Translations under genes and position numbers: made by a program
Source of the DNA: a virus
DNA length: 48,857 nt
UHGV virus genome: UHGV-0138835
Strand: one strand, 5' to 3'
Part shown: one piece after another, positions 13,448 through 33,611 of the stretch
Layout of the letters: each line of letters begins with the position of its first letter
How positions within the stretch are numbered: position 1 is the stretch's first letter
Notes under the pieces: generated by a model
The model's database searches: none
Seen by the model: only the letters and a program-made list of their open reading frames with translations
Told to the model about the DNA's origin: nothing

Positions 13448-14191
13448 CTACTTACACGCAAAAAGTTCAGATACCCAAAGCTGCCCCTTAGCGGTAAATA
13501 GTGATTGGACGTAACCTTCAGCCGAACATTTTACCACTCCATAGCCTTTTTCTACGAACCACTGTTTGAACATACGCCCACCGCGCTTAATTCGCGTATC
13601 GTACACGTCAACCTGTTCAAGTTTTTTGTTGAGTTGCGTAGCAGTCATACCCAAAGGCTTAGCGACCTGTGTAGCGTTGCGATGCTGTTCGTTTTTTGCA
13701 ATAGCATTATAAACAGCCGCTTTCGGTGCTAATTCCTTATTTTCCAGCGCCAGACGATCAACTTCTTTCTGTGCTAATAGTTTTTGCTCTACCTCATCCG
13801 CCCATGCGCGAGCAGCCGCAACCGGATCAGTGAAGTCCGGCAAAGCTGGTTTAAAACCGTAATGTCCATTTTCACGCAAAGCAGGGAGAACTTCTTCACA
13901 CACCCAATCCTGGAAGCGCTCAGCAAATTCTATTTTTGATCGCATCACAAGGCGGTACATATCTGATTCATGAATTAGCGTTACGCCTTGCGGTTTAGGG
14001 TCAAAACCCAAACACTGCATTTCACCGTATTTGATTTTAATCAATGACTTACAATGTTGTTTTAGAGCGTCCGCAGGTCTGATATACCCCAAAGCCCGCG
14101 CCACATCCATTGCAACAAAAGCAGGTTTACCATCATAAATTACAGCAGTGATTTTATTGTCATCAAAATTAAAACACATCAACTCAGACAT
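13448..14191 (-). CDS. antirepressor, Bro-N / KilA-C domain protein
   Basis: N-terminal Bro-N signature (FNFDDNKITAVIYDGKPAFVAMDVARALGY); start taken at ATG 14191 with GGGGAA SD. Confidence 0.7.
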   Translation of the reverse strand: MSELMCFNFDDNKITAVIYDGKPAFVAMDVARALGYIRPADALKQHCKSLIKIKYGEMQCLGFDPKPQGVTLIHESDMYRLVMRSKIEFAERFQDWVCEEVLPALRENGHYGFKPALPDFTDPVAAARAWADEVEQKLLAQKEVDRLALENKELAPKAAVYNAIAKNEQHRNATQVAKPLGMTATQLNKKLEQVDVYDTRIKRGGRMFKQWFVEKGYGVVKCSAEGYVQSLFTAKGQLWVSELFACK

Positions 14192-14323
14192 TGTAATTTC
14201 CCCGCAAAACGCTCTACAACGCAAAAATCCCACCGCGTAACACGTTCGCACATGTTGCAGTGTATTATTGCGCCAGAGGCGCTATCAGGTGGCTAATTTT
14301 TGATTTACAGACCGGTAGGTAGG

Positions 14324-25571: not shown

Positions 25572-25750
25572 AAAACGAAGTTAAAGATCTGCAAATAGAT
25601 ATTCAGCGCGATGAGCATGATTTAGCTACAGTCCGACAAATACAGGCTTTTCACATGAGAGAACTGCTTGCGCTGAAAGAGCTTGAAAGAAAGTTGGTCC
25701 AGTCAATATCTGATCGCAAAAGACTGGTTGCGCGTTACAGGGGAAAATAA
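25568..25750 (+). CDS. hypothetical protein (60 aa)
   Basis: ORF translationally coupled between rusA and Q. Confidence 0.3.
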   Translation: MKNEVKDLQIDIQRDEHDLATVRQIQAFHMRELLALKELERKLVQSISDRKRLVARYRGK

Positions 25751-26472
25751 TGAATCTGGAATCAATTCTTAAATTCCACTTCCCAAAATCACCGCGTTTG
25801 TCAGATGAAAGCCGGGGCACGTCCCCGGATGCGCTTAATACCACGGACGCACTAACTGCCGCAGGTATGGCGCAATCGCGCGTAGAGCTTGGTTATAGCG
25901 CTTTTTTGGGGAAGATGGAACTATCACAAGCCGAAAAACATAAGGCCGTAGTTTTGCTTACAGAGCGTTTAAGGGCTATGGCAAAAGATTATGAATACGT
26001 CATGGAACTGGACGAGGCCAAACGCAATGATCTCATTATTCTTGTTGCCGTTTTCGCGTTTCGGGATTATTGCCAGAGTGCAGCGACCGAAAAAGTTTGC
26101 CCGGAATGCGGCGGATATAAATTTACGTTTGACGAATACGGAGAAAAACACCTTTGCAAAAAATGCAAGGGGCATGGGAAAGTTCTTAATCATTGTAAAC
26201 AATGCAAGGGCCGTGGCGAAGTGCCGGATAAAGCAGCCAGCGAAGCGGCGGAAATGCCAGTATTCAAAACGTGTCAGCATTGCGGCGGGCGCGGGTACTC
26301 GCGTTTCCCTGTAGATCTCGTTCGGCAGGCTGTCAATCAGCTTGTCTTTCCGGTAAGCCGATCAACATGGTGGAAGAAATACCGCGCTTTCTATGAAGAC
26401 GCCATTGCTGAATTGTTCAAAGAAGAGGTGCGGGCAGATAACGAAATTAAACGAGTTACGCGGGGTGAATGA
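25750..26472 (+). CDS. Q: late-gene antitermination protein Q (lambda Q family)
   Basis: N-terminus MNLESILKFHFPKSPRLSD closely parallels recalled lambda Q (MRLESVAKFHSPKSPMMSD); Cys-rich zinc-binding region. Confidence 0.8.
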   Translation: MNLESILKFHFPKSPRLSDESRGTSPDALNTTDALTAAGMAQSRVELGYSAFLGKMELSQAEKHKAVVLLTERLRAMAKDYEYVMELDEAKRNDLIILVAVFAFRDYCQSAATEKVCPECGGYKFTFDEYGEKHLCKKCKGHGKVLNHCKQCKGRGEVPDKAASEAAEMPVFKTCQHCGGRGYSRFPVDLVRQAVNQLVFPVSRSTWWKKYRAFYEDAIAELFKEEVRADNEIKRVTRGE

Positions 26473-30723: not shown

Positions 30724-30924
30724 ATGTTCGACAGAATACGGGAGGCGTGTGCGTATGTGACTGGTGCAGTAACCGCTTTTTTCGGTGCTATAACCATCAA
30801 TGACGTTGCAGTGTTCGTTGGTATCTTATCAACCATTGGCACATTTGCCGTTAATTATTACTTCAAATCACAGGAGAACAAGCGAGCGCAAGAGGAACAC
30901 GACGCGCGAATGGGGAATAAGTAA
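30724..30924 (+). CDS. holin (pinholin-like, two TM domains)
   Basis: 66 aa, two hydrophobic helices, basic C-terminus, directly upstream of a SAR endolysin as in phage 21. Confidence 0.7.
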
Positions 30925-30925
30925 A

Positions 30926-31417
30926 ATGATTAGCCAATCGCTGAAAAACAAGATTGTTGCGGCGGCGGCTGGTGGGGCGATCGCTATTGCGGCGGTGATG
31001 GTAAAAGATCTTGAGGGTGTGGAGTACAAGGCATACAGAGATGTCATCGGTGTTTACACGATATGTTATGGACACGTCGGGAAAGACATCATGCTTGGTA
31101 AGACTTACACGCAATCAGAATGCGATGCTTTGTTAAATAAAGATCTGCACAAGACCGCAAAAGCGATTGACCCATATATCAAAGTCGAAATATCAGATTT
31201 TACCCGCGCAGCACTTTATTCATTCGCCTATAACGTAGGCGCTACCAATTTCAAAACATCAACCTTATTGAAGCTACTCAATGACGGCAAGAAATCAGAG
31301 GCGTGCGCACAGCTTAAACGCTGGGTATACGCTGGCGGTAAGAAGTGGCAAGGCCTGGTAAACCGCCGCGAGGTTGAATATGCCGTTTGCGAATGGGGTG
31401 AAACATGGACAAGGTGA
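30926..31417 (+). CDS. SAR endolysin (GH24 lysozyme with N-terminal signal-arrest-release domain)
   Basis: Close match to recalled phage 21 R21 (GGAIAIA…LEGV.Y…[28 protein letters not shown]……YSF.YNVGA.NF.TSTLL……W.YAGGK.W.GL..RRE.E). Confidence 0.85.
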
Positions 31418-31875
31418 AGACGTTAATCATCGCCGTTGTTGTTTGCATTATTGCCAGCCTTACAGCCGTAACGTGTTATTACCAGGGTGAGGCAGCAAGG
31501 TTACAGGAAGAAGTCACGGTAACGAAAGGCGCACTGAAAACGGCAAGTAACACTATTCAGCAGATGAAGGAGCGAAACGCCGAACTGTCAAAACTTGATA
31601 AGAGGTATCACGATGAGATTAAAGCTATCAGATCTGACATTGCCGATCTGCGCACTGGCATTGATAACGGCACTATCAGGCTGCGCGTCAACGCAATACC
31701 CGTGCGAGTGTCCGACCCCGCCGGAACCGCCAGCGCCATTGATGGAGCCGCCTGTAGACTCACTCCCGACGCTGAATCGGCTTATCTATCCCTCAGAGAA
31801 CAACTAAAAGAGAAAGATGCGAAGATAACCGCGCTTCATGGCTACATCAAAACGCAGTGCTTACGCAAAGAATAA
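31405..31875 (+). CDS. Rz: Rz i-spanin
   Basis: N-terminal TM helix then coiled-coil periplasmic domain; contains embedded +1-frame Rz1. Confidence 0.75.
31613..31807 (+). CDS. Rz1: Rz1 o-spanin (lipoprotein embedded within Rz)
   Basis: Lipobox ITALSGC, proline-rich mature peptide, ATG 31613 with AGAGG SD, fully inside Rz in another frame. Confidence 0.7.
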   Translation: MRLKLSDLTLPICALALITALSGCASTQYPCECPTPPEPPAPLMEPPVDSLPTLNRLIYPSENN

Positions 31876-32202
31876 CAGCGCGTGGACGTGTCGCCGTTTC
31901 CGCCAGCCAGCCATAACCGGGCCAATCCTTCCCGCGAGCGGCGGCGGAAATTCAAAAACACGTAATACCGGATCAACAGTCCCATTAACAGGTCAGGCGC
32001 CACCTGGGTAGAAGAAAGCGCCATTTACTCACCTGCCACGCGTAGGACGAGCGCCCGGATCTGTTTATCAGAGATGTTAAGCAGGTCCAGTTTTATAAAA
32101 TTCTGCAAACGGTACTCACTAAGCGCCGTTTTCAGTGTTTTATGTCATTCCTGCCGCTGTATAAACAGGAAGTAAAAGCAAACCAGACAGGAGATTATTC
32201 TG

Positions 32203-32787
32203 ATGGCTAAGGCTAAAGGCATTAAGTTGCCTCAATTCAAAGTCCCGCTCTTTGAGCATACAACCGTTTTCTTTTGCCCGACCCGCGAGATGTTCTATGA
32301 ATTTTGCGAAAAGGCAGGGATCCCAATCGAACCTGATTTCGAACTGGCAGGGGGATTAACACTTACTTGCACTGGCGAGAAAGGCGGTAACTTCTATGTG
32401 ATCGCAGTATTCGACAATGAGTTAGGAACGCTGGTACATGAAGCGGCGCATACCACATTCCATGTTTTAAGCGATGTAGGCGTCGTTGCAACTACAGATC
32501 CAAGCCATCCGGCAAACGAGACTTATGCTTACATGGTGGGCCGTATCTTTGATGCATTTTTCCCCATCCTGGCAGAATCAAATGAAGCACAGGTTGCAGC
32601 AATGCAGGCCGCTGAAGTCGTAGAGAAGGCATTAGAACAGGCAGAAAAGGCGACTGATGCAGCAGAACAGGCAGTGGAACAGGCAGAGCAGCCGAAAGAA
32701 GAGAAAAAACCAGCTAAGAAAGGCAAACGTAAGCCTAAAGCAAAAGAAGCGCTTGTACCGCGTGTTATGAGCTTTAAACGGGGGTGA
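32203..32787 (+). CDS. HExxH-motif protein with Ala/Glu/Lys-rich C-terminal tail (possible zinc metallopeptidase)
   Basis: LVHEAAHTTFH motif; low-complexity basic C-terminus; between lysis cassette and micro-ORF array. Confidence 0.5.
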   Translation: MAKAKGIKLPQFKVPLFEHTTVFFCPTREMFYEFCEKAGIPIEPDFELAGGLTLTCTGEKGGNFYVIAVFDNELGTLVHEAAHTTFHVLSDVGVVATTDPSHPANETYAYMVGRIFDAFFPILAESNEAQVAAMQAAEVVEKALEQAEKATDAAEQAVEQAEQPKEEKKPAKKGKRKPKAKEALVPRVMSFKRG

Positions 32788-32789
32788 TT

Positions 32790-32858
32790 ATGGTTACTTT
32801 CCTGTTAGGTTTATTTATCGGAATGGCTGCCGCTGTAATATTACTGGTCGGTGAATAA
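32790..32858 (+). CDS. micro-ORF 1 (22 aa) hydrophobic single-helix peptide MVTFLLGLFIGMAAAVILLVGE
   Basis: SD GGGGGTGA 5 nt upstream; read by hand; below ORF-track cutoff. Confidence 0.45.
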   Translation: MVTFLLGLFIGMAAAVILLVGE

Positions 32859-32862
32859 TGTT

Positions 32863-32979
32863 ATGGACGATTATATCATCGCCGGATTAATCGGTATTTC
32901 TGTATTTCTTGTTGGTTCTATCATAGTTGCATTGATAAACGCATATATCAAGCATTGGGTGGGGTTGAAAGATGATTGA
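32863..32979 (+). CDS. micro-ORF 2 (38 aa) MDDYIIAGLIGISVFLVGSIIVALINAYIKHWVGLKDD
   Basis: SD GGTGA 9 nt upstream. Confidence 0.45.
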   Translation: MDDYIIAGLIGISVFLVGSIIVALINAYIKHWVGLKDD

Positions 32980-33046
32980 TCCGCTCATTATCCTTTCTGC
33001 CTGCGTCGCTGTATGGCTGGCGATCATGATATTCATTGAAAGCTGA
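32972..33046 (+). CDS. micro-ORF 3 (24 aa) MIDPLIILSACVAVWLAIMIFIES
   Basis: ATGATTGA overlap with micro-ORF 2; SD GGGTGGGG upstream. Confidence 0.4.
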   Translation: MIDPLIILSACVAVWLAIMIFIES

Positions 33047-33057
33047 AGGTATTCACC

Positions 33058-33132
33058 ATGAATATTTACGATCTAATATGGTGGTCAGTGGTCGCCGTCA
33101 TTATCTATTTCTGGTGGAAGAATGTTGTATAG
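33058..33132 (+). CDS. micro-ORF 4 (24 aa) MNIYDLIWWSVVAVIIYFWWKNVV
   Basis: SD GAAGGT 8 nt upstream. Confidence 0.45.
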   Translation: MNIYDLIWWSVVAVIIYFWWKNVV

Positions 33133-33139
33133 GTGAAGC

Positions 33140-33220
33140 ATGAACGCATACGAAATGCTATTGCTGGTGGCTGTAGTTGTAGTCATTGCTGTTGATTTTT
33201 ATAGAGGGTTTAAAAGATGA
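33140..33220 (+). CDS. micro-ORF 5 (26 aa) MNAYEMLLLVAVVVVIAVDFYRGFKR
   Basis: SD AGGTGA 4 nt upstream. Confidence 0.45.
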   Translation: MNAYEMLLLVAVVVVIAVDFYRGFKR

Positions 33221-33288
33221 GAGAAGCAGACTTCTTTTGCATAATTATAGTGATCGTCATCGTTGCGGTGCTTTTAAGCGTTAACTGA
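33217..33288 (+). CDS. micro-ORF 6 (23 aa) MREADFFCIIIVIVIVAVLLSVN
   Basis: ATGA overlap with micro-ORF 5; SD GAGGG upstream. Confidence 0.4.
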   Translation: MREADFFCIIIVIVIVAVLLSVN

Positions 33289-33305
33289 ATCGCAGGGGGT
33301 TGAAA

Positions 33306-33374
33306 ATGAAATGGCTTGATTTCTTTTTCCTGGTTGTTGCGATTGTTTTTACCATGACCGCGCTGACTCAATAG
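33306..33374 (+). CDS. micro-ORF 7 (22 aa) MKWLDFFFLVVAIVFTMTALTQ
   Basis: SD AGGGGG 7 nt upstream. Confidence 0.45.
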   Translation: MKWLDFFFLVVAIVFTMTALTQ

Positions 33375-33382
33375 GTGAATAT

Positions 33383-33457
33383 ATGGAAACTATCGAAGCC
33401 GTATTATTCGTATGTATCGCGGCGGTTGTTATTGTGGGGTTTATTATCAATGTCTGA
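33383..33457 (+). CDS. micro-ORF 8 (24 aa) METIEAVLFVCIAAVVIVGFIINV
   Basis: SD AGGTGA 5 nt upstream. Confidence 0.45.
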   Translation: METIEAVLFVCIAAVVIVGFIINV

Positions 33458-33518
33458 CGGTGATTTCTTAATCATGGCTATATGCACGTTGTTAGTCGTT
33501 ATCGTTTTCTTCGCATAA
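33450..33518 (+). CDS. micro-ORF 9 (22 aa) MSDGDFLIMAICTLLVVIVFFA
   Basis: ATGTCTGA overlap with micro-ORF 8 (coupled). Confidence 0.35.
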   Translation: MSDGDFLIMAICTLLVVIVFFA

Positions 33519-33527
33519 AGGTAAACA

Positions 33528-33611
33528 ATGAAAGAATTATTCGACTGGTTGGAAGTATTAACATACTGCGCAAGTTTTGTTGCTTGCGTATACATCATCA
33601 ATAAATATTGA
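33528..33611 (+). CDS. micro-ORF 10 (27 aa) MKELFDWLEVLTYCASFVACVYIINKY
   Basis: SD AAGG 7 nt upstream; stop 10 nt before the terminase small subunit start. Confidence 0.45.
   Translation: MKELFDWLEVLTYCASFVACVYIINKY

Follow-up and report, generated by a model that had tools for sequence, protein, structure and literature searches.

The virus genome UHGV-0138835, a stretch of 48,857 nucleotides (nt) that we call the window, carries between its lysis and packaging genes an open reading frame (ORF; 32203..32787, + strand, ATG start) for a protein of 194 amino acids (aa). Residues 77–87 of this protein read LVHEAAHTTFH and include the motif HExxH, and the locus raises the question of whether the gene codes for a zinc metallopeptidase and, if so, what role such an enzyme might play in a phage. 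An earlier note on this DNA had suggested that a peptidase at this position might process or mature the small peptides encoded immediately downstream, or might be a regulatory protease resembling ImmA or SprT. The features on which those suggestions were built, namely the ORF, the HExxH motif, a helical stretch rich in Ala, Glu, and Gln, a Lys-rich C-terminus, an upstream gap of ~330 base pairs, and the position between Rz and the array, were all confirmed. We consider the best overall explanation to be a minimal stand-alone zincin-type metallohydrolase, likely an endopeptidase, that has an accessory role, and we give this reading a probability of roughly 0.6. The relevant parts of the gene are:

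32203..32787, + strand: coding sequence for the HExxH protein of 194 aa, which is homologous to mEp021_49 and belongs to the HkcC/Orf-129 family (PHROG 1365)
32189..32193, + strand: Shine–Dalgarno sequence AGGAG, 9 nt 5′ of the ATG, read from the sequence and kept in relatives
32203..32580, + strand: conserved catalytic-type domain, residues 1–126, as delimited by the PHROG 1365 match and the AlphaFold model
32437..32451, + strand: HExxH codons (H79-E80-A-A-H83); both His residues are predicted zinc ligands, and the Glu is the predicted general base
32518..32532, + strand: codons for E106-T-Y-A-Y110, in which E106 is the predicted third zinc ligand from conservation and the thermolysin alignment

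Four Invariant Residues Outline a Predicted Zinc Site

By chance, the HExxH motif would be expected 0.003 times in this protein and 0.16 times in the window's + strand ORFs of ≥100 aa taken together; of these ORFs, only this one contains it. When 128 family representatives that are 21–63% identical to the window protein were aligned, exactly four columns proved to be invariant, and these are H79, E80, H83, and E106. Three further residues (G51, G93, and Y110) are conserved in at least 90% of the representatives. The HExxH motif is kept in 146 of the 149 sequences of a wider set; two of the exceptions look truncated or frameshifted, and the third has HK replacing HE. The other histidines that might be considered as ligands, including H87 within LVHEAAHTTFH as well as H19 and H102, are not conserved family-wide, and a metzincin-type third His was excluded for this reason. 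Ratios of nonsynonymous to synonymous substitution rates (dN/dS) of 0.02–0.17 in the N-terminal domain reveal strong purifying selection, by which measure the ORF is a real gene.

An AlphaFold model of the domain, built on a deep alignment, has a predicted local distance difference test score of 94.3 and a predicted template modeling score of 0.87. It contains strands at residues 11–13, 21–25, 51–57, and 63–69 and helices at residues 28–38, 74–91, and 103–134. Structure prediction had been proposed in the earlier note as a check of whether the motif lies in a helix with a third zinc ligand. In the model, HExxH sits within helix 74–91, and E106, the predicted third ligand, is at the start of the next helix. 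The zincin core has been described as three strands with one helix on the N-terminal side and two on the C-terminal side (PMC5512222), and the order of elements in the model (strand, helix, two strands, HExxH helix, Glu helix) appears to follow that of this core.

A search of the sequences in the PDB with the family profile yielded nine matches with E < 10, all of them to zinc metallopeptidases (myroilysin, peptidyl-Lys metalloendopeptidase, thermolysin, and tolloid-like proteins) and none individually significant. Thermolysin residues 135–179 align with the family profile over 45 residues without a gap, such that HELTH142–146 is placed on the family HExxH motif and E166 (within GAINEAISD) on the invariant E106. 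The alignments with myroilysin and M35 also cover the two strands that precede the active-site helix. Thus the ligand spacing is the same as in thermolysin-type Glu-zincins (MEROPS M4; HExxH...NExxSD), and the catalytic chemistry would be expected to be the same as well. The motif in a helix, the invariant E106 at thermolysin-like spacing, and the zincin order of elements all support the candidate zinc metallopeptidase put forward in the earlier note. On these sequence and model grounds, we find it quite probable that this PHROG 1365-type protein is a stand-alone Glu-zincin-like metallohydrolase or metallopeptidase, although its membership in any named peptidase family is not established.

The Window Protein Joins a Catalogued Phage Family

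The window represents an mEp021-like coliphage, in which this region is 88–92% identical to the mEpimmI group of temperate Escherichia coli siphophages, represented by seven records (mEp021, mEp010, mEp013, mEp044, mEp515, mEp554, and MagusPhagus). This group has been described previously (PMC11893012), and neither that paper nor its supplements mention the HExxH gene. Its homologue in mEp021, mEp021_49, is annotated as “hypothetical protein,” and the same label is attached to all copies found in complete E. coli genomes, of which 32 of 5,426 (~0.6%) carry the gene, in every case on the chromosome.

The protein matches PHROG 1365, a family annotated as of unknown function, with E = 6.3e-30 over residues 1–131 and profile positions 3–124 of 127. 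The same profile is matched by 128 of the 128 family representatives. Members of this family include HkcC of P22 and HK620, Orf-129 of ST64T, ORF47 of ST104, and gene 70 of epsilon34. An exhaustive profile search of 1.84 billion representatives recovered 233 clusters (counted at 50% identity) at E ≤ 1e-3, and a second homologue search with the family profile mostly found the same E. coli set again. Because the proteins in these clusters are nearly all 110–140 aa long, the N-terminal ~125 residues are, by this comparison, the conserved unit of the family, to which the window protein adds 70 residues at its C-terminus.

Searches of phage genomes with tblastn identified 83 records, comprising the 7 mEpimmI phages, ~74 P22-like phages, and 2 records of Ralstonia phage RSB3. 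Identities to the P22-type members are 35–45% over 87–93% of the domain; for example, the window protein is 45% identical to ST64T orf-129 (E = 6e-24) and 35% identical to hkcC of P22/HK620 (E = 1e-11). Homologues of Orf-129 occur in ST64T-type P22-like phages, including ST64T, ST104, epsilon34, g341c, and others. At the ST64T locus, which was inspected, the gene follows lysis gene 15 (Rz) and precedes terminase gene 3. The family member of the T7-like phage RSB3 is ORF49, directly 3′ of an Rz-like spanin. The mEpimmI phages, the ST64T-type P22-like phages, and a P22-like prophage of metagenomic origin all carry the gene between Rz and the small terminase gene.

The hkcC gene of P22 and HK620 is instead a + strand ORF between sieA and orf59a, within the “ant moron,” and the function of HkcC has been given as unknown (PMC2629481). 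In the P22 reference record (NC_002371.2) the gene is unannotated, and the only feature that overlaps it is the “sieA promoter.” The ORF is located at 2489–2866 of the P22 locus examined (L005; approximately 13849–14226 of the record, + strand), is 125 aa long from its first start codon, GTG, and encodes HECAH and NETYCY. Some P22-like genomes have two places that match the family, and a single place was found in others, for example, in ST64T and the P22 reference record.

The HkcC and Orf-129 proteins share with the window protein the HExxH motif, a Glu motif of the form NETY(C/A)Y, and placement as accessory genes in a late operon. They differ in that they consist of the bare 120–130-aa domain. 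In the window and mEpimmI proteins, this domain is extended by a tail of ~50–70 aa, and a micro-ORF array comes after their genes. Comparison of the family loci revealed no partner gene shared across lineages. The window protein is thus a new member of an already catalogued, uncharacterized phage family, to which it adds a clade-specific tail.

One further locus, from a metagenomic phage, has a different arrangement. There, the coding sequence of a 189-aa family member and the stop codon of a Tad2-like gene (PF11195) overlap (L014, 4729–5570). The block around this pair includes two ParB_N genes, an ABC-like ATPase gene, and a thioredoxin gene and is positioned upstream of the terminase gene. 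It looks like an accessory or counter-defence gene cluster.

Comparison with Named Metallopeptidase Families

Proteins of the SprT/Spartan/Wss1 type are also minimal HExxH zincins, and the basic tail of the window protein recalls their DNA-binding regions. However, the window protein is without the zinc ribbon of SprT-like proteins, and its predicted third ligand is Glu, whereas the third ligand of Spartan and Wss1 is His. The SprT-like profile (PF10263) gave weak, sub-threshold matches in 19 of the 128 family members (best E = 1e-4) and no match to the window protein or to the family consensus, and an hhalign comparison with E. coli SprT returned a probability of 4.9%. We rejected membership in the SprT-like family given the lack of any above-threshold Pfam match and the negative hhalign result.

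ImmA/IrrE proteins combine an HExxH motif with a downstream Glu ligand and, like the window protein, are encoded by mobile elements. The window gene differs in being part of a late operon, between lysis and packaging genes, with Rz, the micro-ORFs, and the small terminase gene as neighbors. Pfam scans of the window protein and of all 128 members gave no match to M78, the ImmA/IrrE family. We rejected this assignment on the basis that M78 matches are lacking and the gene is not beside a repressor gene. Neither regulatory protease named in the earlier note is therefore supported as an identity for the protein.

A public third-party annotation record labels one homologue (P0118) as “PolyVal Metallopeptidase superfamily domain,” and we tested this label with an alignment of 120 ArdC-type PF18818 domains. 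Comparison with hhalign gave a probability of 87% (P = 3.8e-6), against 0.3% for reversed controls. Masking of H79, E80, and H83 lowered the probability to 1.9%, and for this reason the similarity, as far as these alignments tell, is one of the motif and its immediate flanks and is not independent evidence. The 25 families listed for the 128 members do not include PF18818. Membership in MPTase-PolyVal (PF18818) beyond the motif was rejected on the basis of this missing listing and the failed masked-motif control.

Some likeness to ArdC is nevertheless apparent. ArdC/PolyVal proteins are mobile-element zincins in which HExxH is followed by Glu ~23 residues on, and their described core (Iyer et al. 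2017, PMC5512222) resembles the topology predicted for the window protein. In contrast, the Glu helix of ArdC itself is treated as an insertion in the hhalign alignment with the window family. In addition, ArdC is fused to a single-stranded DNA-binding domain and is associated with conjugative plasmids, whereas the window gene is a solo phage late gene.

A Clade-Specific C-Terminal Extension

Beyond the conserved domain, the protein continues with an acidic segment and a basic segment:

32581..32691, + strand: Ala/Glu/Gln-rich acidic helical linker, residues 127–163, whose length differs among relatives
32622..32687, + strand: imperfect 21-nt tandem repeat, 3.2 copies, corresponding to the heptad EQAEKAx
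32692..32784, + strand: Lys-rich basic tail, residues 164–194, predicted to be disordered

The linker consists of 32% Ala, 22% Glu, and 16% Gln, has a net charge of −7, and extends the last helix of the domain. The basic tail, KKPAKKGKRKPKAK, is 32% Lys and has a net charge of +10. A basic tail is present in 13 of the 13 close relatives aligned, as one of two sequence variants, of which one is well conserved in most mEpimmI relatives and the second, also basic, occurs in two sequences (P0113 and P0117). The alignment of close relatives shows invariant tail residues at K172, K175, R176, K177, K179, K181, E182, P186, and V188. Given that most of the wider family is without it, the tail is a clade-specific addition of the mEpimmI group, with a putative targeting or regulatory function. 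At the level of a guess, its H1-like composition might suggest binding to nucleic acid.

Close homologues come in lengths of 180, 190, and 194 aa. The indels behind these variants lie in the repeat stretch 32622–32687, and the 21-nt tandem repeat probably accounts for the differences in length. In the relative L003 (6001–6534), synonymous divergence (dS) from the window gene is ~3.9 in the N-terminal domain and 0.25 in the basic tail. This difference indicates that a recombination junction lies within the HExxH gene.

Genomic Setting and Expression

The gene follows the lysis cassette and precedes the micro-ORFs and packaging genes:

30724–30924: holin
30923–31417: endolysin
31405–31875: Rz (PF03245)
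31876..32202, + strand: upstream intergenic region, non-coding, with a long imperfect hairpin at 32094–32144
32784..33611, + strand: downstream array of ~10 translationally coupled hydrophobic micro-ORFs (context)

A gap of 327 nt separates the end of Rz (31875) from the HExxH gene, whose stop codon overlaps the GTG start codon of the first micro-ORF. Located 3′ of the array are genes for an Sf6-type small terminase (33622), the large terminase, the portal, and a Mu-F-like protein. An Rz1-like ORF (31595–31807) lies inside Rz in another frame and encodes a lipobox-like LSGC motif and a Pro-rich mature part. Some relatives carry selfish insertions that are not in the window, including an HNH endonuclease gene between endolysin and Rz (L003, 4752–5273), an intein in the Mu-F-like gene (L003, 10491–12398), and, in L004 (7250–7753), an HNH gene that separates the genes for the small and large terminases.

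The region at 31876–32202 is more conserved at the nucleotide level than the flanking genes in the five relatives compared, and its predicted folding is more stable than that of shuffled sequence (z = −3.46). Indels in the region, one of 59 nt and others that break the frame, mark it as non-coding; a reverse-strand ORF at 31842–32024 was rejected because indels interrupt it in relatives. The conserved hairpin at 32094–32144 carries a terminator annotation in mEp021, and Rfam matches in the region are all far below gathering thresholds. The region could serve to terminate the late operon, act as a regulatory RNA element, or be related to packaging.

The HExxH gene is co-oriented with the late operon, for which a Q-type antiterminator is encoded at 25750–26472, and a search of the + strand upstream of the gene revealed no sigma-70-like promoter. 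Given this orientation, the lack of its own + strand promoter, and the preceding hairpin, the gene is most likely expressed late, by read-through.

Proposed Mechanism and Role

From the observed conservation, motif spacing, predicted topology, synteny, and distribution, we infer metal binding, catalysis, a substrate class, and a role for the tail, as follows. Translation would use the late mRNA produced under Q antitermination, on which the gene follows the lysis cassette and precedes the micro-ORFs and terminase genes. Its product is predicted to be a cytoplasmic minimal zincin-type (Glu-zincin-like) metallohydrolase, most likely a zinc endopeptidase, in which zinc would be held by H79 and H83 from helix 74–91 and by E106 from the start of the next helix, while E80 would activate a water molecule. 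The two-stranded hairpin at residues 51–69 and the conserved Y110 may line the substrate cleft. In the mEpimmI clade, the ~125-aa domain appears to have gained an acidic repeat helix and a histone-H1-like basic tail, and these two additions might anchor or control the enzyme, with nucleic acid or an acidic partner as possible anchoring points. The gene is probably a dispensable, moron-like accessory gene, and the most likely substrate would be a protein of the host or of a competing element, rather than the micro-peptides or a virion component. We favor a dispensable accessory protease because the slots occupied by the family, after Rz, in the ant moron, and adjacent to a Tad2-like gene, are typical of accessory genes.

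Several points weigh against this explanation. Searches of Pfam, NCBIfam, PADLOC, and PDB sequences with the window protein gave nothing significant, nor did the same kinds of search with two P22-type homologues and with the family consensus. A Foldseek comparison of the model with the PDB gave a best E of 0.09 and TM-scores of ≤0.34, and hence no significant solved structure. The similarity to ArdC is lost when the three catalytic residues are masked, as described above. The literature searched on hkcC, on PHROG 1365, and on phage metalloproteases in anti-defence contained no experiment on a family member and no functional data. Finally, the accessory role, although favored, is read from genomic context, that is, from position and distribution.

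A broader proposal can be made only tentatively, and we regard it as doubtful. The family might represent a structurally distinct class of mini-Glu-zincins of ~120 aa with no solved relative, which would serve temperate phages as counter-defence or host-takeover proteases encoded in accessory slots of the late operon. The tail of mEpimmI members would then be a means of tethering to nucleic acid, and some genomes would carry two diverged paralogues.

The Micro-ORF Array and Alternative Explanations

The array in the window comprises ~10 hydrophobic micro-ORFs of 22–42 aa, and the micro-peptides are single hydrophobic helices of 22–27 aa without a leader. The array is modular, with units of 22–27 aa shuffled, gained, or lost among relatives, such that there are approximately 10 units in the window, 5 in mEp021, 12 in MagusPhagus, 8 in L003, and 2 in L004. 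The last unit, MKELFDWLEVLTYCASFVACVYIINKY, is directly 5′ of the small terminase gene and is identical in four of five loci, having diverged in mEp021. In relatives, the array is located as follows:

L001, 3994–4472: micro-ORF array
L002, 3394–4466: micro-ORF array
L003, 6528–7085: micro-ORF array
L004, 6556–6730: micro-ORF array

The proposal that the HExxH protein is a maturation or processing protease for the ten adjacent hydrophobic micro-peptides draws on the adjacency of the genes, on their translational coupling through the stop/start overlap, and on the presence of both the protease gene and the array in all seven mEpimmI records and in two metagenomic relatives. We nevertheless consider it very improbable. 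The number of units ranges from ~2 to 12 while the protease gene is constant, the only phage records found to contain array DNA were those of the seven mEpimmI phages, and a peptide of 22–27 aa amounts to about one transmembrane helix, with no leader or recognizable cleavage site. Members of the protease family, by contrast, are present in 76 other phage records and ~230 clusters, and the genes that come after them are typically unrelated, such as orf-134 in ST64T, a gene for a 414-aa protein in RSB3, and genes for 47- and 156-aa proteins in the P22-like prophage. No such array was seen at the family loci examined outside mEpimmI, including those of P22-like and T7-like phages. A maturation role is unsupported because the array varies, is restricted to mEpimmI, and encodes peptides without a leader. 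The adjacency is better explained by a shared variable slot between the lysis and packaging modules.

Other explanations concern the reaction catalyzed or the place where the protein acts. The HExxH...E metal site might belong to a new small fold that is not a peptidase and that uses the metal for another reaction, as in a nuclease (compare the zincin-like RNase YbeY) or an amidase, or that holds a structural metal. We consider this unlikely, since the invariant general-base Glu, the spacing identical to that of thermolysin, and the zincin order of elements are more simply explained by a zincin peptidase, and the weak matches are to peptidases only. A SprT/Spartan- or ArdC-like protease, tethered to DNA and cleaving DNA-bound proteins around the time of packaging, would fit the weak PF10263 matches, the 87% hhalign probability with ArdC/PolyVal, the +10 tail found in all close relatives, and the position directly upstream of the packaging genes; its targets would be restriction or defence enzymes, nucleoid proteins, or crosslinked proteins. 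This too is distinctly unlikely. Most family members, at 110–140 aa, are without the tail, and tethering is consequently not the core mechanism. Moreover, no nucleic-acid-binding domain was detected, the comparison with SprT itself was negative, the ArdC signal comes from the motif alone, and the invariant Glu stands where Spartan and Wss1 have a third His.

A role in lysis, for example, through the degradation, as infection ends, of a protein that maintains the envelope or inhibits lysis, is suggested by the location directly after Rz/Rz1 in three unrelated phage types, namely mEpimmI siphophages, ST64T-like podophages, and the T7-like Ralstonia phage RSB3. However, the junction between Rz and terminase genes is a classic accessory-gene slot in lambdoid phages, exemplified by lambda bor. 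The P22/HK620 paralogue hkcC is in the ant moron and other members are far from lysis genes, while in the window the conserved hairpin with its terminator annotation separates the gene from Rz. The envelope targets of lysis lie outside the cytoplasm, whereas the protein is without a signal peptide or transmembrane segment, and we judge a lysis factor to be improbable. Least credible is a capsid-targeted internal protein or morphogenetic protease, in which the helical rod and basic C-terminus would act as a scaffold-type signal. The gene does head the morphogenesis operon, and a long helix with a basic C-terminus resembles the C-termini of scaffolding proteins, but the P22-like family members are accessory genes without the tail. 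Furthermore, the mEp021 homologue is labeled “hypothetical protein,” whereas mEp021_41 in the same record is labeled “virion structural protein.” The mEpimmI paper identified 16 virion proteins by mass spectrometry (PMC11893012), and we infer that the latter label reflects this set.

Implications

The outcome of this analysis is a prediction of enzyme class for a hypothetical protein that is well supported by sequence comparison and modeling, together with a negative result on the link to the micro-ORF array. Knowledge of what the family cleaves would provide a function for a gene that is unannotated or labeled “hypothetical” in P22, HK620, ST64T, and the mEp phages, as well as in the ~0.6% of complete E. 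coli genomes that carry it. A protease this small (~120 aa), for which no related structure has been solved, would also make a good minimal scaffold to study. Should the substrate be a host defence protein or a protein of a competitor, a proteolytic mode would be added to the counter-defence repertoire of phages, and interest in the family would rise if a structurally new mini-zincin were used in phage–host conflict.
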